Of a stretch of 64,000 nucleotides of DNA, positions 18,835 to 51,730 are shown one piece after another; positions within the stretch are counted from its first letter, which is position 1, and every line of letters starts with the position of its first letter. The DNA is from Escherichia coli 042 (GTDB lineage Bacteria; Pseudomonadota; Gammaproteobacteria; Enterobacterales; Enterobacteriaceae). Made by a program: the position numbers and the translations under genes. The notes beneath the pieces were generated by a model. That model was not told the origin of the DNA, did not search any database, and worked only from the letters and a program-made list of their open reading frames with translations. Where the stretch lies: assembly GCF_000027125.1 (NCBI RefSeq), contig NC_017626.1. The stretch is one strand, 5' to 3'.

Positions 18835-20310
18835 CTAAAGTGAATCTATTCCATTTTTCCAAATAAGAACTTTTTTGTCTTGTATTTTATGAGTGCTATC
18901 AGGCTGCCCAAACTGTTTTATGGCCTTTTCCTCTTGCTCTACATCATCAGCAATTAAAAAATTAGCTCCTTTTTGGTACCATTCTTTTTTTGATAACCAA
19001 TTATATGGTGTGAATCTATCACCATACGACTCAAATGGAGCTACGTTGATATCACTAAATCCAGCAACAGATGATGCAAACCAAAATGATGCATAACCTC
19101 TTTGTAGTTTATTTTTTATTAAGAAATCTCTTAATTCTATTGTAATATCATTTTTATTAACAATGTTTTTTGTTGTTGCCATCGTTGGCAACGATAACGC
19201 AATAACGATTAATGATATTAGTAAATTTGTCTTCACTGGTAAGGAGAAAGAATTTCTAGCAATCACAATTGACATGAAAATAAATGTTGGGACTATGTAT
19301 CTAATTGAGAAAAGATTTGTTGGCCTGTCACTTGAAACATAGGCAATCAACATGACTAATGATGATACAATAAGAACCTGGTCAATAAAATCAATTTCTT
19401 TAAATTTAAGAATGTTTTTATAAGATAAAAATAAGAATACAAAAATGAAAAACACCTTTATCATGGTGAATAATGAGTTAAAGCTACCTATCTCCATTCC
19501 AAACGCGTACCCACCAAAAAATTTGAATACGCCCATGATAACAAGAGATATGTTGCTTGTTATTTGTTGAAACTCTACTATGTGAGGTTTGGTTATGCCT
19601 GGCAGGTTAAATCCACCAAGCTTAATGAATATAAATGATATGATCTCAGCAATAAATATAGATGATATAGTGAAAACCAACAATAACAAATCATTAGTAT
19701 TCAACGAATCTCTTTTCATTAGAGAAGCATACATTCTATATATGCAAACAAAAACTATAGGTATTATAAAGGCATATTTAGATATATCATCACTAAAAAC
19801 AAGCAACGATAACATAAATACATATGGAAAAAGTAATTTTAAATCATTTTTCTTTCTGTATCTATCTATTATTAGTATGATCGCCAGCATGTAAATGTAC
19901 GCACCAATATGTATACATGCTATAAGCATTATACTTGATGAGAAAACCGTTGGAATTCCAAATACAGAAAGAACAGGCCATAACGATGCCCTACTTTTAG
20001 TATGAGAGATATATAGCGATAGTGTTACTAATATAGACATGAAAACTCCAGGCACAATATAGTACAGATTTTCATTAAATCCTATTATTTTTATCGCTAT
20101 AGCATATGGTATTATTTCTGTGAAATAGAATGATACAGTTGATAAATCCCACCCACTGAGAAAAATATTTCCTTCAGTAATATCCCTTGCCTCTCTGAAT
20201 GAAGACATGACATCTGAGTTTGGAATTATGTTTTTAGCAATCATTGAGTAAATTATTGATAATACAATAAATGTTGCCAGCCAATATAAAAGCTCAAGCT
20301 TCTTGCTCAT
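18835..20310 (-). CDS. gtrC: Serotype-specific O-antigen glucosyltransferase (GtrC-type polytopic membrane protein)
   Basis: 491-aa, strongly AT-rich, multi-TM ORF directly downstream of gtrB with a 4-nt overlap. Confidence 0.7.
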
Positions 20311-21224
20311 TTTTTACCCTTAAGTACATACTTTGGACGCTGCTTAACTTCAATGTAAATTCTACCAATATACTCACCGAGCACTCCAATCCCAATTAAC
20401 TGGATGCCGCCAAGAAATAATATTGATACAAGAATTGAAGGGTATCCAGGTACATTATTACCAAAAATTAATTTATCAATTATCATCCATGAACCGTATG
20501 TAAATGATATACATGCAATAAATAACCCAATATAGGTCCACATGCGAAGCGGGAATGTTGAGAAGCTAGTGATCCCTTCCAGCGCCAAGTTCCATAGCTT
20601 CCATCCATTGAACTTTGTGCTTCCTGCAACGCGTTCTGCTCGCGCATATTCTACGACATCGGTTCGACCACCAACCCAGCTCAGCACACCCTTCATAAAC
20701 AGGTTTCGTTCTGGCATGAGCTTAATATTTTCTACTACTTCGCGAGACATGAGCCGGAAGTCGCCAACATTCTCTTCTATCTGAGGGTTGCTGATTTTGT
20801 TATGAAGTTTATAGAACCACTCAGCAGATTTACGCTTCAGCCTGCTGTCAGTGGAGCGGTCAGAGCGTTTAGCCAGAACCATATCTGCACCGGCCTGCCA
20901 TTTCTCTATCAAGTGAGGAATAACTTCGATAGGGTCTTGCAGATCAACGTCAATCGGGATAATTGCCTCCCCGGTAGCATGGTCCAGACCTGCGAACAGG
21001 GCGGGTTCTTTGCCGAAGTTACGTGTGAACGACAGCGAAACCACAAGCGGGTCGGCAACAGCGAGCTCGTTGATAATTGATTCTGTAGCGTCTTTGCTGC
21101 CATCGTTTATGAAGACTATCTCGACTTCATGCTGCTGAAGCCCTTCAAATTCGCGCACAGTTTTATAAAAAATAGGTATCGTGGCCTCTTCGTTAAAGAC
21201 CGGAACGACTAAAGAAATTTTCAT
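20307..21224 (-). CDS. gtrB: Bactoprenol glucosyltransferase (GT2 family)
   Basis: 305-aa ORF with GT2 N-terminal motifs ([21 protein letters not shown]) and C-terminal TM helices. Confidence 0.9.
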
Positions 21225-35142: not shown

Positions 35143-35348
35143 TTCTTTTTTCACCATCAATATCCCGGCCATGTGTCGGGATTTTTTTCTTACGAAAAAA
35201 CGACACTTAACAAGTACCAGGTATAAAATATGCCTTATGAGCGAGCGGAAGCGTTTTCCGTATCCATAAATACAAAAGTATTTTGTATGCGTGGTTTTGA
35301 ATTTATTGATGGTAAGTATTAATGTTTTTTCTAAGGACAACTAAAAGA

Positions 35349-36062
35349 ATGGAATCATACTCGCAAAACAGCAATAAATTAGATTTTCAGCACGAGGCCA
35401 GGATATTAAACGGCATATGGCTCATTACAGCTTTGGGTTTGGCGGCAACCGCAGGACTGGCCTGGGTAGCGAAGCATCTTGAAATTACGGCAACAAAATA
35501 TGATTCACCGCAAATGTATGTCGCCATAGGATTATTATTACTTTGTATGTATGGTTTAAGTAAGGATATCAACAAGATAAATGCCGCCATCGCAGGCCTA
35601 ATATATCTGTTTTTACTCTCTTTGGTGGCGATTGTCGTTGCTAGTTAAGTTCCTGTATCTGCCATTATCGTCGTGTTCAGCACCGCGGGCGCGATGTTTT
35701 TAATCAGTATGCTGGCCGGTTTATTATTTAATGTTGATCCTTGTTCTCATCGTTTTATCATTATGATGATGTTGACAGGGTTGGCCCTGGTGATCATCGT
35801 GAATGCCGCATTAATGAGTGAACGGCCCATTTGGGTAATAAGTTGCTTAATGATTGTGTTATGGTCAGGCATTATCTCGCATGGACGAAATAAGCTCCTT
35901 GAACTGGCAGGAAAATGCCATAGCGAAGAGTTGTGGAGTCCGGTTCGTTGCGCTTTTACAGGTGTATTAACACTCTATTACTATTTTATCGGCTTCTTTG
36001 GGATTCTTGCAGCAATAGCGATAACGCTTGTCTGGCAAAGGCATACGCGGTTTCATATTTAA
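35349..36062 (+). pseudogene. ybhM: ybhM interrupted by an in-frame TAA at 35646..35648
   Basis: Two ORF-track fragments (to 35648, and from 35673) are in the same frame and separated only by a single TAA; overall span equals a full-length gene. Confidence 0.7.
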
Positions 36063-36120
36063 CGCACTTTCGACTTACGTTTAGAAATGTAGTATCTGAA
36101 ATATAATAGTGGAGAATATC

Positions 36121-36498
36121 ATGCAGTTAGTTTGTACCATCGATAAAAAATATATGGATAAATTTATGGCTATACTGTTTTCAGGAGTGTTACATTCCTT
36201 GAAAGAAGGTTCAATAACTATAGATGAATCTGAACTACTTGTTTTTAGACCTTTTATTTCCAGGCTTTTGCACAAAAATAGTTGTGATAAAGAGTTAATA
36301 GATATAATCGATCTTGGTTGTGAGTTTGAAGATATTGAGTCCCTGGTTCCTGAGCATCTTGATGATGCTATAAAAAACTTAATAACCAAAGTAAGTGATT
36401 TTACATATGCAACAAAAGATAATTATCCCTTGAGTGATAAAATGGAACATGCAGTATCTTTTATGTTTACAAATAACAACGGGCATGATGTGCATTAA
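36121..36498 (+). CDS. Island ORF-A, acidic hypothetical protein
   Basis: ATG with GGAGA RBS; AT-rich; C-terminus ...DNYPLSDKMEHAVSFMFTNNNGHDVH recurs in the remnant at 37705..37830. Confidence 0.5.
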   Translation: MQLVCTIDKKYMDKFMAILFSGVLHSLKEGSITIDESELLVFRPFISRLLHKNSCDKELIDIIDLGCEFEDIESLVPEHLDDAIKNLITKVSDFTYATKDNYPLSDKMEHAVSFMFTNNNGHDVH

Positions 36499-36586
36499 TG
36501 TGGAATGCTAATAAATTGACCATAATTATGTATTCTTAGAATAGTATTGCAAATGTTAATTATGAAAATAAATATTGTGGATTATA

Positions 36587-37045
36587 ATGAAAAATAAAAT
36601 CGAGTTTGATCAGGCTATTAAAAATGCTTATCTCGATATGGCGTTTCCCAACTTTGCATTTGTGATGGAGAAGTATAACTCATTAAAATATAAAGGCATA
36701 ATTACTGAGTTGAGTTCACGGTTTGATGTAAGAGATAACACTGAATTAAATAATGATGTTTGTTTTTCATTAGAAGTTGTTTTGCAAGAAGGTATTGCCT
36801 TTTTATATATGTCTTTTGTCGGGCAATATGCATTTATAATATTCAAAAACGACGTTATAACAAAACATGCAAATATAAATGCAGATGTAGCAGGTTTAAT
36901 TGATATATTGCTTTGTCATGAATTCATGATTTTGGATAAAGAATTTTTACTAAGTGAAGTTAGTTGCGATATTTGTCCGTTTTTAGTCGAAGCAAATAAT
37001 AAATATTTAAATTATTTATTCGCTCGTGGATTGAAAATAAAATAG
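36587..37045 (+). CDS. Island ORF-B, hypothetical protein
   Basis: 152-aa AT-rich ORF co-directional with ORF-A (track start 36575). Confidence 0.45.
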   Translation: MKNKIEFDQAIKNAYLDMAFPNFAFVMEKYNSLKYKGIITELSSRFDVRDNTELNNDVCFSLEVVLQEGIAFLYMSFVGQYAFIIFKNDVITKHANINADVAGLIDILLCHEFMILDKEFLLSEVSCDICPFLVEANNKYLNYLFARGLKIK

Positions 37046-37104
37046 CGTTATTGTTAACTAGTTTAAGATATTGAAATTTGTTATTTAACATATCAGGATG
37101 TTCT

Positions 37105-37704
37105 ATGTTAATAAAGTTAATTGATTTACAAACTATCAAGATTTTCGAAAAAATAAACTCATCTTCATCCGATTTAAGTAAGGAAATAAAAATAAAATCG
37201 CCGCTTCTAATTCCCTATGAAAATCAAGGGGTAACATTTTATTGTGATGAGCTATATGTATTTGATTCCGATGGTTATATTGTATTTGGTCATGATTTAG
37301 ATGGTTATTTTATTGTTAGCGTAAAAAACAAGAAAGTTTATTACTTGTATGATATAGACGAATGCGCAAATTTTACGATGATGTATTGCAATTCTGGAAT
37401 AAATGATTTTATTATATTCAATAATATTTTTATGCAGGCGGTTTTTAAACAATCAGAATTGATGGAAAAACAATTGTTAACAGATGATGAAATTTTATCA
37501 GATGCAATGGATGCTATATTTACCCAATGCGACAGTGAGGCTATGAAAGATGATGCCTTCTGGGGCTTAAGATGCTACGAGCTTCGCGACGGCTTTTTTC
37601 CTTTAAATGATGCCAAAATTAAATTTTATAGTGAAATGGAAAAAGGTCCTCATCAAGGCAAAAGTGAATCCATTCACAAGAGCAAGTTGAACAAAAATGA
37701 TTAA
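37105..37704 (+). CDS. Island ORF-C, hypothetical protein (possible immunity-protein-like fold)
   Basis: 199-aa ORF with AGGA RBS; C-terminal ...DAFWGLRCYELRDGFFPL... motif. Confidence 0.45.
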   Translation: MLIKLIDLQTIKIFEKINSSSSDLSKEIKIKSPLLIPYENQGVTFYCDELYVFDSDGYIVFGHDLDGYFIVSVKNKKVYYLYDIDECANFTMMYCNSGINDFIIFNNIFMQAVFKQSELMEKQLLTDDEILSDAMDAIFTQCDSEAMKDDAFWGLRCYELRDGFFPLNDAKIKFYSEMEKGPHQGKSESIHKSKLNKND

Positions 37705-37830
37705 ATGAGAGGCTCTTCACATCGCCGCTTCATTATTCGTCCAGAAAAAGATGATTATCCCTTAAGTGATGAAATGGAAAATGTGGTTTCCTTGGGATTT
37801 AGCAATAATAAGGATTTGCAGAATGTTTAA
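37705..37830 (+). pseudogene. Remnant of an ORF-A paralogue fused to a ybhN-3'-like repeat
   Basis: 41-codon frame MRGSSHRRFIIRPEKDDYPLSDEMENVVSLGFSNNKDLQNV; last ~26 aa align with the ORF-A C-terminus at ~75% nucleotide identity. Confidence 0.45.
37715..37741. repeat. Direct repeat copy 1: duplicate of the ybhN 3' terminus
   Basis: CTTCACATCGCCGCTTCATT is identical to 38046..38065, with partial similarity extending further. Confidence 0.7.
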
Positions 37831-38044
37831 AGATAAAACTGTCGCAGCGGAAATTAGTGCATTAATGCTTGAGATTGGTGCGAAATTAGATAATTCCGTT
37901 TCAGTTGTTCAGATAAGTTGTGATGAATCTGAGTTTAATATTTATCGGGCCGCCGTTGGTGAAATTATGGGGCGCATGCTAATCGACATCATGAACCCCA
38001 TTTATAAACAGCATCCCGAACTTAAACAAAAAGAACTTAACTAA
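37826..38044 (+). CDS. Island ORF-D, small hypothetical protein
   Basis: 72-aa ORF from MFKDKTVAAEISALMLEIGAKL...; ATG overlaps the remnant stop. Confidence 0.4.
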   Translation, partial: FKDKTVAAEISALMLEIGAKLDNSVSVVQISCDESEFNIYRAAVGEIMGRMLIDIMNPIYKQHPELKQKELN

Positions 38045-38045
38045 A

Positions 38046-38072
38046 CTTCACATCGCCGCTTCATTTTTCGCC
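38046..38072. repeat. Direct repeat copy 2: the genuine ybhN stop and last codons
   Basis: Same 20-mer; encodes the ybhN C-terminus ...AKNEAAM* on the minus strand. Confidence 0.7.
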
Positions 38073-39004
38073 CGCAGCTTCTTCGCCTGGCTTTCCAGTA
38101 ACAGGTAACAGATCAGCGCCAGCAGCAGTGGGATAAAGTAATACAGCACACGATAAGCGAGTAGGGCGGCGATAATTGTGCCTTTAGATGTATGCTCCCC
38201 TGCCAGTAGCGCGATAAACACCGCTTCCAGCACACCAATTCCCGCCGGAATATGCACGATGACACCAGCAATACTACTAACCAGCAACACGCCCAGTACA
38301 AAGAAATAGTTCACGCTTTGACCAAGTAACAGCCAGATTATCGCTCCCATTACCATCCAGTTAACGCTGGAAATCAGCATCTGGGCGAGGGCAAATTTCC
38401 ATGAGGGCAGCACCAGTTTTTGCCCTTTGATGGTCATATGGCGGTGCTTCGCGAAAGCGCAAAACCACAAATAAACCGCGATAATCATCAATAAGCCAAT
38501 GCCGAGAATACGCAGTGTAGTTTGATCGACATACCAGTGATCCGGCAACTCCACCACGCCTGCGGTAAAGATAATCCCCGCCAGTAAAATATAGCCCAGC
38601 CAGTTGGTGGTAATACTCAGCGAGAAAATCCGCGTGATAGTGCTGCCCGGTAACCCTAGCCGGGAGTACAAACGATAGCGCATACCAATGCCGCCGACCC
38701 AGGTACTGAGTGTCAGGTTGAAGGCGTAGCAGATAAACGACACCAGCATCACCTGGCGCTTCGCCAGTTTGTGACCGCAGTAGAAGCGGGCGAGCAGGTC
38801 ATAGCAGCCGTAAATCAGATAACTGACGACCACCAGCCCGACCGCACTAAGCAGCGCAACGCGATTGTAGTCGCGGATGACCTTCCAGACCTCTTCCCAG
38901 TCCACCTTTTTGGCGTAGACCACCAGCAACACAATCACCGCGATAAAAAACAGCCAGGTGAGGATCTTCTTTGCTAAGCGCCAGCGCGGGTGTGATTTAC
39001 TCAT
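38048..39004 (-). CDS. ybhN: Inner membrane protein (UPF0104 family)
   Basis: 318-aa multi-TM ORF; translationally coupled to clsB. Confidence 0.85.
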   Translation of the reverse strand: MSKSHPRWRLAKKILTWLFFIAVIVLLVVYAKKVDWEEVWKVIRDYNRVALLSAVGLVVVSYLIYGCYDLLARFYCGHKLAKRQVMLVSFICYAFNLTLSTWVGGIGMRYRLYSRLGLPGSTITRIFSLSITTNWLGYILLAGIIFTAGVVELPDHWYVDQTTLRILGIGLLMIIAVYLWFCAFAKHRHMTIKGQKLVLPSWKFALAQMLISSVNWMVMGAIIWLLLGQSVNYFFVLGVLLVSSIAGVIVHIPAGIGVLEAVFIALLAGEHTSKGTIIAALLAYRVLYYFIPLLLALICYLLLESQAKKLRAKNEAAM

Positions 39005-48796: not shown

Positions 48797-48895
48797 GCCT
48801 GATGCGCTACGCTTATCAGGCCTACATGAACTCTGCAATATATTGAATTTGCATGCTTTTGTAGGCCGGATAAGGCGTTTGCGCCGCATCCGGCA
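48797..48895. repeat. REP/BIME element pair downstream of rhlE
   Basis: GCCTGATGCGCTACGCTTATCAGGCCTAC and GTAGGCCGGATAAGGCGTTTGCGCCGCATCCGGCA. Confidence 0.75.
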
Positions 48896-48977: not shown

Positions 48978-49460
48978 TTACTTCTCTATAGCCAATTGTT
49001 CACGCAACTCCATTAAAAGGTAGCCCAGTCGATTCTTGCCCTTACCATTACCACCGTCTCCCCAGTAAGCATCATTTTCCGTATGCTCAACCAGTTTTGC
49101 GGACGCGGTTGCCAGCAAGAGCGCACGCAGTTCTGCATGTTGTTCGAATTTAGCGCGAAGCGCTTTTCGCATCACCTGTTCTTTGACCGACTCCCAGTTT
49201 TTACGAAGTGGCTTGGAACGATCACGCCCCATGCGAGCGGCGACCATAGGGGAAGAAACCCGACGGATCTCTTCGCGGTATTTTTCATCAAGGAATTTTT
49301 GTGCCTGGAAATAGTGTTCTGAGGTGGGCCAGGTTTTCCCGTCAACCTTAATGGGCCAGGCGGCAAAGTTAGAAAAATCACCGTAGTCATCGCCGGTGCT
49401 GTAGAAATTTATGGTGGTGTCTTGCATGACGTGTTGGATCCTTTGTGCTCGAACGGGCAT
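48978..49460 (-). CDS. ybiA: N-glycosidase YbiA (DUF1768)
   Basis: 160-aa ORF; synteny. Confidence 0.8.
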   Translation of the reverse strand: MPVRAQRIQHVMQDTTINFYSTGDDYGDFSNFAAWPIKVDGKTWPTSEHYFQAQKFLDEKYREEIRRVSSPMVAARMGRDRSKPLRKNWESVKEQVMRKALRAKFEQHAELRALLLATASAKLVEHTENDAYWGDGGNGKGKNRLGYLLMELREQLAIEK

Positions 49461-49545
49461 TAAACCGCATTATGTTGGTGGTTATTGCGAGTCGCTTTCC
49501 AGAAACAGAAAAACCATTACCCCTGAAAACCGAAAAATGCCACAA

Positions 49546-49565
49546 TATTGGCTGTTTATACAGTA
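49546..49565. promoter_or_regulatory. LexA (SOS) box of dinG
   Basis: TATTGGCTGTTTATACAGTA immediately upstream of the dinG start. Confidence 0.8.
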
Positions 49566-49579
49566 TTTCAGGTTTTCTC

Positions 49580-51730
49580 ATGGCATTAACCGCCGCGCTT
49601 AAAGCGCAAATTGCCGCCTGGTATAAGGCGCTTCAGGAACAGATCCCCGACTTTATTCCCCGTGCGCCGCAGCGGCAGATGATTGCGGACGTCGCCAAAA
49701 CGCTGGCCGGAGAAGAAGGGCGGCATCTGGCGATTGAAGCTCCCACCGGCGTTGGGAAAACGCTCTCCTATTTGATCCCCGGCATCGCCATTGCCCGCGA
49801 AGAGCAAAAAACGCTGGTGGTGAGTACCGCCAACGTGGCGTTGCAGGATCAGATTTACAGCAAAGATTTACCGCTGCTGAAAAAGATCATTCCCGATCTT
49901 AAATTCACTGCCGCTTTTGGGCGTGGGCGCTACGTTTGCCCGCGTAATCTGACGGCGCTTGCCAGTACTGAACCCACGCAACAGGATCTGCTGGCGTTTC
50001 TTGACGACGAACTGACGCCAAATAATCAGGAAGAGCAAAAACGTTGTGCGAAACTTAAGGGCGATCTCGATACTTATAAATGGGATGGTCTGCGCGATCA
50101 TACGGATATTGCTATAGATGACGATCTCTGGCGTCGTTTAAGTACCGACAAAGCCAGCTGCCTCAACCGCAACTGTTATTACTATCGCGAATGCCCGTTT
50201 TTTGTCGCTCGTCGGGAGATTCAGGAAGCGGAAGTGGTGGTGGCAAACCATGCGCTGGTGATGGCGGCGATGGAAAGCGAAGCCGTATTGCCTGACCCGA
50301 AAAATTTACTGCTGGTGCTGGACGAAGGTCATCACCTGCCGGATGTGGCGCGGGATGCGCTGGAGATGAGCGCCGAAATCACCGCGCCCTGGTATCGGCT
50401 GCAACTGGACTTGTTCACGAAACTGGTCGCTACCTGTATGGAGCAGTTTCGCCCGAAGACCATCCCACCGCTGGCGATCCCCGAGCGTTTGAATGCGCAT
50501 TGTGAAGAGTTGTATGAGCTTATCGCCTCGTTAAACAACATTCTCAATCTCTACATGCCTGCCGGGCAGGAGGCAGAACACCGTTTTGCGATGGGCGAAC
50601 TACCTGATGAAGTGCTGGAGATCTGCCAGCGGCTGGCAAAACTCACCGAGATGCTGCGTGGTCTGGCGGAGTTATTTCTTAACGATTTAAGTGAGAAAAC
50701 CGGCAGCCATGACATTGTACGTCTGCATCGGTTGATTTTGCAGATGAACCGCGCGCTGGGGATGTTCGAGGCGCAAAGCAAACTCTGGCGGCTGGCGTCT
50801 CTGGCGCAATCTTCCGGTGCGCCGGTGACCAAATGGGCGACGCGGGAAGAGCGCGAAGGGCAGCTACATCTCTGGTTTCACTGTGTGGGTATTCGTGTCA
50901 GCGATCAGCTGGAAAGGCTGCTGTGGCGCAGTATTCCGCACATTATTATCACTTCCGCGACCTTACGTTCGCTGAACAGTTTTTCGCGTTTGCAGGAGAT
51001 GAGCGGGCTGAAAGAGAAAGCGGGCGACCGTTTTGTGGCGCTGGATTCCCCCTTTAACCACTGCGAACAGGGCAAAATTGTTATTCCCCGGATGCGCGTT
51101 GAGCCTTCCATCGACAACGAAGAGCAGCACATTGCTGAAATGGCAGCCTTTTTCCGTGAGCAGGTGGAGAGCAAAAAACATCTCGGTATGTTGGTACTGT
51201 TTGCCAGCGGACGGGCGATGCAGCGGTTTCTCGACTATGTGACGGATTTACGCCTGATGTTGCTGGTGCAGGGCGATCAGCCGCGTTATCGCTTAGTTGA
51301 ACTGCACCGCAAACGCGTTGCCAACGGTGAGCGTAGTGTGCTGGTGGGCTTACAGTCCTTTGCCGAAGGACTTGATTTGAAAGGTGATCTGCTCAGCCAG
51401 GTGCATATCCACAAAATCGCTTTTCCGCCCATCGACAGCCCGGTGGTGATCACCGAAGGGGAATGGCTGAAAAGCCTCAACCGCTATCCGTTTGAGGTGC
51501 AAAGCCTGCCGAGTGCCTCGTTTAACCTGATTCAGCAGGTTGGGCGACTGATTCGAAGCCACGGTTGCTGGGGCGAAGTGGTGATTTACGATAAACGCTT
51601 GCTCACCAAAAACTACGGCAAGCGGCTACTGGATGCATTACCGGTATTTCCGATAGAGCAACCGGAAGTCCCTGAAGGTATAGTTAAAAAGAAAGAAAAA
51701 ACGAAATCCCCACGCCGTCGGCGGCGTTAA
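49580..51730 (+). CDS. dinG: ATP-dependent DNA helicase DinG
   Basis: 716-aa product from MALTAALKAQIAAWYK; the track ORF has a 5' extension across the SOS box. Confidence 0.9.
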   Translation: MALTAALKAQIAAWYKALQEQIPDFIPRAPQRQMIADVAKTLAGEEGRHLAIEAPTGVGKTLSYLIPGIAIAREEQKTLVVSTANVALQDQIYSKDLPLLKKIIPDLKFTAAFGRGRYVCPRNLTALASTEPTQQDLLAFLDDELTPNNQEEQKRCAKLKGDLDTYKWDGLRDHTDIAIDDDLWRRLSTDKASCLNRNCYYYRECPFFVARREIQEAEVVVANHALVMAAMESEAVLPDPKNLLLVLDEGHHLPDVARDALEMSAEITAPWYRLQLDLFTKLVATCMEQFRPKTIPPLAIPERLNAHCEELYELIASLNNILNLYMPAGQEAEHRFAMGELPDEVLEICQRLAKLTEMLRGLAELFLNDLSEKTGSHDIVRLHRLILQMNRALGMFEAQSKLWRLASLAQSSGAPVTKWATREEREGQLHLWFHCVGIRVSDQLERLLWRSIPHIIITSATLRSLNSFSRLQEMSGLKEKAGDRFVALDSPFNHCEQGKIVIPRMRVEPSIDNEEQHIAEMAAFFREQVESKKHLGMLVLFASGRAMQRFLDYVTDLRLMLLVQGDQPRYRLVELHRKRVANGERSVLVGLQSFAEGLDLKGDLLSQVHIHKIAFPPIDSPVVITEGEWLKSLNRYPFEVQSLPSASFNLIQQVGRLIRSHGCWGEVVIYDKRLLTKNYGKRLLDALPVFPIEQPEVPEGIVKKKEKTKSPRRRRR

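Follow-up and report, generated by a model that had tools for sequence, protein, structure and literature searches.

Premature termination of ybhM within a clonal lineage of Escherichia coli, beside a variable islet of immunity-like genes

Genes and signals of the ybhL-ybhN interval

The locus considered here was analysed within a window of 64,000 nucleotides of Escherichia coli 042, the term window being used hereafter for that whole stretch of DNA, and its features are collected in table 1. The gene ybhM, of the BI-1/YccA family, lies between ybhL and ybhN, and both its length and its place agree with those of the ybhM annotated in K-12 and other E. coli. Its reading frame of 714 nt translates from M1 to S99, meets a stop and then continues through 137 sense codons to the terminal TAA. 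This confirms a preliminary description of the sequence, according to which an in-frame TAA splits a ybhM that is otherwise as long as in K-12. The start at 35322 found in the list of open reading frames, which gives a 108-aa ORF, is not the orthologous start of ybhM; because the K-12 start corresponds to position 35349, the truncated product has 99 residues. The upstream paralogue ybhL had been described as intact, which is borne out, and the neighbouring gene identical to it in loci L003 and L009 matches the Pfam family Bax1-I. The terminator-like hairpin that follows ybhL implies, on the strength of a consensus match, that ybhM has a promoter of its own in the AT-rich spacer.

Table 1. Features of the ybhL-ybhN interval (positions in the window).
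Feature	Position	Strand	Evidence or remarks
ybhL, intact paralogue of ybhM, 234 aa	34438..35142	+	Two substitutions with respect to K-12
Terminator-like hairpin and T-run after ybhL	35162..35190	+	Consensus match only
ybhM pseudogene, BI-1/YccA family, 237 codons plus stop	35349..36062	+	Translation; gapless collinearity with K-12 and AST215
N-terminal stub of 99 aa (N-terminal helix and TM1-TM3), sole product expected	35349..35648	+	Exact sequence in public data; AF2 model; hydropathy
Premature TAA, codon 100	35646..35648	+	Causal SNP at 35647: A here, T in all relatives
3' remnant of ybhM (TM4-TM7), read as untranslated	35649..36062	+	
Low-GC (30.7%) islet with orphan immunity-like genes	36050..38030	+	In place of about 30 bp of the ybhM-ybhN spacer in K-12
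DUF3969 gene	36121-36498	+	E=3e-16
152-aa ORF	36587-37045	+	No Pfam match
SUKH-4 immunity-like ORF	37105-37704	+	E=6.9e-6
73-aa ORF	37823-38044	+	
ybhN, intact	38048..39004	-	Protein identical to K-12

The vicinity of ybhM to an island had also been pointed out before, and the two indeed adjoin so tightly that homology to K-12 stops within the last two codons of ybhM (about position 36050), where RFFH* becomes RFHI*, to resume at about 38031, just before the stop of ybhN. No toxin gene lies adjacent to the immunity-like genes of this 2-kb islet, and ybhM and the islet ORFs are all without a matching NCBIfam model. The complete genome closest to the islet is that of GF4-3, which covers 84% of the query with 93% identity. 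Across E. coli the interval between ybhL and ybhN is hypervariable, with none to two ybhM-like genes and none to four immunity-like genes, and the islet varies more than the adjacent ybhM. Two direct repeats are found in it: one of 66 nt (36414-36479 and 37746-37811, 77% identical) that copies the 3' end of the DUF3969 gene, and another of 28 nt (37715-37742 and 38046-38073, 93% identical) that copies the 3' end of ybhN. The presence of both scars in the same islet suggests a stepwise gain of cassettes through recombination at the ybhN end. Of the promoter-like sites in the region the best one, again a consensus match, is situated between ybhM and the islet (36080-36107), so the latter may be independent of ybhM transcription.

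Other parts of the window contain features of separate interest. Positions 1-21700 correspond to the right part of a serotype-converting myovirus prophage resembling SfI and SfII (96% identity over 84% of the query), in which three low-GC ORFs on the minus strand (120, 305 and 491 aa, at 18835-21583) lie under the matched SfI/SfII gtr genes of O-antigen modification. The ORFs adjoining the prophage we take, from their order and sizes, to be ybhB and bioA-bioD. Rfam matches include a Moco riboswitch at 31466-31610, upstream of an ORF collinear with K-12 moaA, and the sRNA ES036 (CssrF) at 48818-48860 on the minus strand. The 85-nt tRNA-Gly(gcc) that ARAGORN places at 51326-51410 falls inside an ORF of 761 aa (49445-51730) and is probably a false positive.

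The premature stop and its distribution

Codon 100 is TTA (Leu) in every intact ybhM allele examined, as opposed to TAA in the window, and alignment with the intact orthologues of K-12 and AST215 reveals no indels over the 714 nt. This single-base change with respect to intact alleles supports the earlier proposal that ybhM has become a pseudogene by nonsense mutation. The accompanying expectation that the codon would be a sense codon elsewhere was correct, but the codons suggested, CAA or TAT, were not. No reference allele with a stop at this position and a correspondingly shorter gene was encountered, since K-12 and all other references examined have a sense codon there and a ybhM annotated with 237 aa.

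The stop allele recurs widely in public data. The exact 99-aa product was recovered from no fewer than 83 contigs, and from 128 index blocks, of NCBI, ENA and Logan assemblies, the E. coli carriers in GenBank, Logan and ENA including LR134246.1 (locus L004), and it has been deposited as VED13180.1 and VED36639.1 under the annotation 'membrane protein YbhM'. The allele is thus present in public records already, where it is not described as a pseudogene. Loci L003 and L004 reproduce the window across ybhM, with zero mismatches over 6.3 kb. An error of sequencing or assembly, by which the true base at 35647 would be T and ybhM intact, might draw some support from the carrier assembly L004 itself, in which moaC appears to be split into 127 aa and 35 aa, a sign of errors in that assembly, whose differences from the window are all indels, with zero mismatches. 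However, the change in ybhM is a substitution rather than a homopolymer indel, and the isolates of the sister group, which have T, make up a set of their own that is likewise replicated. Given the recurrence of the 99-aa product on so many contigs and the match of L003 and L004 to the window, the error that the preliminary description had allowed for can be excluded for all practical purposes. (The split moaC, called at 774-1261 of L004, is whole in both the window and L003 and is probably an indel error of that long-read assembly).

The polarity of the change was examined through intact relatives of the allele. Three missense changes, G132C, T141M and A206V, are specific to this allele. With L100 kept and each of these sites in either state, eight full-length proteins are possible; all were looked up, and only one of the eight exists, namely P0031 (MDY9197483.1 and others), which has all three states of the window. 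P0031 equals the YbhM of the window at all the other 236 positions, differing by L100 only, and occurs on 8-17 contigs in loci with the same islet and flanks. Among the sister loci, L009 shows 3 SNPs with respect to the window over 20.7 kb, L010 shows 4 over 20.7 kb and L011 shows 3 over 11 kb, that at 35647 being one of them each time, and the metagenomic scaffolds L012 and L013 differ within ybhM at this position only. Because these five sister sequences (L009-L013), otherwise nearly identical to the window, carry T at 35647, the stop is the newest change on this allele, having arisen within one clonal lineage. The possibility that G132C, T141M and A206V represent decay following the stop, under relaxed selection, was rejected, for their joint presence in the intact sister protein places them before it. 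Public data contain the truncated allele more often than the intact sister allele (83 versus 8-17 contigs, in raw counts that include clonal relatives), which could reflect neutrality combined with clonal expansion, or else a selective benefit.

Among 5,426 complete RefSeq genomes of E. coli, the 63-mer around the stop has no exact match (the best being AST215 with one mismatch), and neither do TAA-bearing 41-mers built on either of two common backgrounds; an exact 40-mer is absent also from the species-representative genomes of GTDB. The nearest complete RefSeq E. coli shows 98.0% identity for ybhM itself, and 99.3% over the upstream 7.3 kb.

As a separate observation, the ybhM of the window is a recombinant mosaic. 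Its 5' part is identical to the islet-free allele of AST215 and its 3' part is of the type that goes with the islet downstream, the two meeting between positions 336 and 402 of the gene.

Predicted consequences for the YbhM protein

When rejoined across the stop, YbhM matches the Pfam family Bax1-I (PF01027, E=4.3e-18), the match spanning positions 3-205 of the 207 in the model; in the precomputed Pfam listing, neither fragment has a match by itself. The AF2 model of the protein (pLDDT 78) contains helices at residues 4-43, 54-76, 79-100, 103-127, 134-154, 159-192 and 198-236, and agrees with the hydropathy segments in showing seven transmembrane helices. In this model, codon 100 ends helix 79-100, just ahead of the turn at residues 101-102 that connects TM3 to TM4, so the stub is predicted to retain TM1-TM3 but to lack TM4-TM7. 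In-frame candidates for a restart of translation are GTG 35673, ATG 35694 and ATG 35709, none of which is preceded by a recognisable Shine-Dalgarno sequence; each would drop part of TM4. There is no suppressor tRNA in the window and no Rfam element or recoding signal at the stop site. A terminator-like hairpin just 3' of the stop (35669-35696) was also considered and attributed to chance, two such sites having been found versus 1.7 expected. With a stub predicted to lack TM4-TM7, restart codons without Shine-Dalgarno sequences and a window devoid of suppressor tRNA or recoding elements, the outcome best supported is loss of function.

Two ways in which a working protein might nevertheless be produced have to be weighed against this outcome. 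Full-length YbhM would still be made if the stop were bypassed through readthrough, whether programmed or leaky, or with the help of an ochre suppressor tRNA, and the remaining frame is indeed open, though this is expected of so young a mutation. Both release factors recognise UAA, which is the commonest and least leaky stop in E. coli, while ochre suppressors are rare in natural isolates; since, in addition, the window contains no suppressor tRNA, the site is without recoding signals and the nearby hairpin falls within chance expectation, we regard such a bypass as exceedingly improbable. Alternatively, ybhM could function as a split gene, in which the stub with TM1-3 and a reinitiated C-terminal product with TM4-7 assemble into a working protein. 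The position of the stop, exactly at the turn between TM3 and TM4, would suit this arrangement, as would the in-frame GTG and ATG that follow the stop by 24 and 45 nt and the calling of 35694-36062 as a gene in the assembly of L004, although the gene caller does not predict it in L003. However, a restart at codon 109 or 116 would remove from a third to half of TM4 (helix 103-127), all restart codons are without anything like a Shine-Dalgarno sequence, and the change consists of a single recent SNP accompanied by zero compensatory changes, which together make a split gene highly improbable.

Recurrent loss of ybhM and comparison with known relatives

Disruption of ybhM is by no means restricted to the lineage studied here. 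In about 11% of complete genomes less than 80% of ybhM is covered, and about 88% keep most of the gene. In one sampled genome, an in-frame deletion of 324 bp leaves a protein of 129 aa (WP_000446924.1); IS1 insertions annotated as pseudogenes are found in others, for instance SCEC020001; and in strain N96 ybhM is missing between ybhL and the islet. Many YbhM products of E. coli and Shigella are truncated or partial at contig ends. The laboratory strains HB101/RR1 carry ybhM::IS5 (PMC5379014). With regard to expression, the sole note that we found is the induction of ybhM in O157 on lettuce (PMC6891304), and in the literature searched no paper joins ybhL with yccA.

This recurrence bears upon the question of whether the loss has been adaptive, that is, whether inactivation of ybhM is advantageous, for instance because a phage or a polymorphic toxin makes use of this inner-membrane protein, so that the stop was selected rather than drifting. 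Independent disruptions by different mechanisms would be in accord with selection, as would the more frequent sampling of the mutant sub-clade than of its intact sister and the position of ybhM next to immunity-like genes in a locus that is hypervariable. Yet recurrent loss is equally expected of a dispensable gene under drift, most of ybhM is retained by the large majority of complete genomes mentioned above, the sampling counts are raw and include clonal relatives, and the literature searched contains no link of ybhM to toxins or phages; we therefore consider adaptive loss rather unlikely. A more specific version, in which YbhM is exploited by a phage or by a contact-dependent or polymorphic toxin, or is itself a membrane immunity protein, and its loss has been selected on that account, seems to us very unlikely; if it were true, the TAA at codon 100 would be one of many convergent knock-outs conferring resistance. 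This version starts from a BI-1-like protein devoid of the di-Asp sensor of its family, encoded in a hypervariable locus that also has extra BI-1 paralogues and orphan immunity genes.

The ybhM of the window is, very probably, a real, recent and lineage-specific loss-of-function allele of a dispensable gene, produced by a single nonsense SNP. Within a clonal lineage of E. coli, a T to A transversion at 35647 turned Leu100 (TTA) of one sub-clade into TAA, an ochre stop. Translation would then end at the turn between TM3 and TM4 and release a three-helix stub of 99 residues, without TM4-TM7 and hence without over half of the Bax1-I domain, so that YbhM function would be lost. The stub is probably degraded, and a functional protein is not expected. 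Such loss appears to be tolerated because the gene is dispensable, having been destroyed independently in many lineages of E. coli and Shigella, and the mutation may consequently be near-neutral. By itself, the stop is an ordinary strain-specific pseudogene that matters little. It does mark one clonal sub-lineage of E. coli with a clean and datable knock-out of ybhM, and the TTA sister and TAA isolates form a natural isogenic pair in which a ybhM phenotype could be sought. The stop is, furthermore, another instance of the repeated inactivation of ybhM, which indicates a gene that is dispensable in many niches and that annotators and pan-genome studies should not count as core.

Compared with the other broken alleles of ybhM (the 324-bp deletion, the IS1 and IS5 insertions and the Shigella partials), the present one concerns the same gene and likewise indicates that its loss is tolerated in natural and laboratory strains, but those are independent events of deletion or IS insertion, none of which has TAA at codon 100, whereas the window presents a point nonsense mutation. 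The ybhM of K-12 (b0787; WP_000446911.1), encoding an inner-membrane protein of the BI-1/YccA family, occupies the same locus and aligns without gaps over 714 nt with 94.6% nucleotide identity; it differs in having TTA at codon 100, an intact ORF, no islet and FH* instead of HI* as its last two codons. Closest of all is the sister allele encoding P0031, which shares islet and flanks with the window and differs, apart from the T at 35647 that preserves a full-length YbhM, by 2-3 other SNPs per 11-20.7 kb.

The structural prototype of the TMBIM/BI-1 family, YetJ of Bacillus subtilis (PDB 4PGW and related entries), shares the Pfam Bax1-I family and seven predicted helices with YbhM, and, among PDB sequences, gives the best match to the ybhM-family profile, nearly full length but with a marginal E=0.054; fold searches with the YbhM model gave no specific match. 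Asp171 and Asp195 of YetJ reportedly form a di-aspartyl pH sensor, a feature of the TM6/TM7 region that characterises a functional subclass rather than membership of the Pfam family. Both aspartates are retained in YbhL, whereas in all alleles of YbhM the aligned residues are Gly179 and Tyr212. Because it has neither of these aspartates, YbhM appears from its sequence to be a divergent member of the family, one whose mode of action is unlikely to be that of canonical BI-1 or YetJ.
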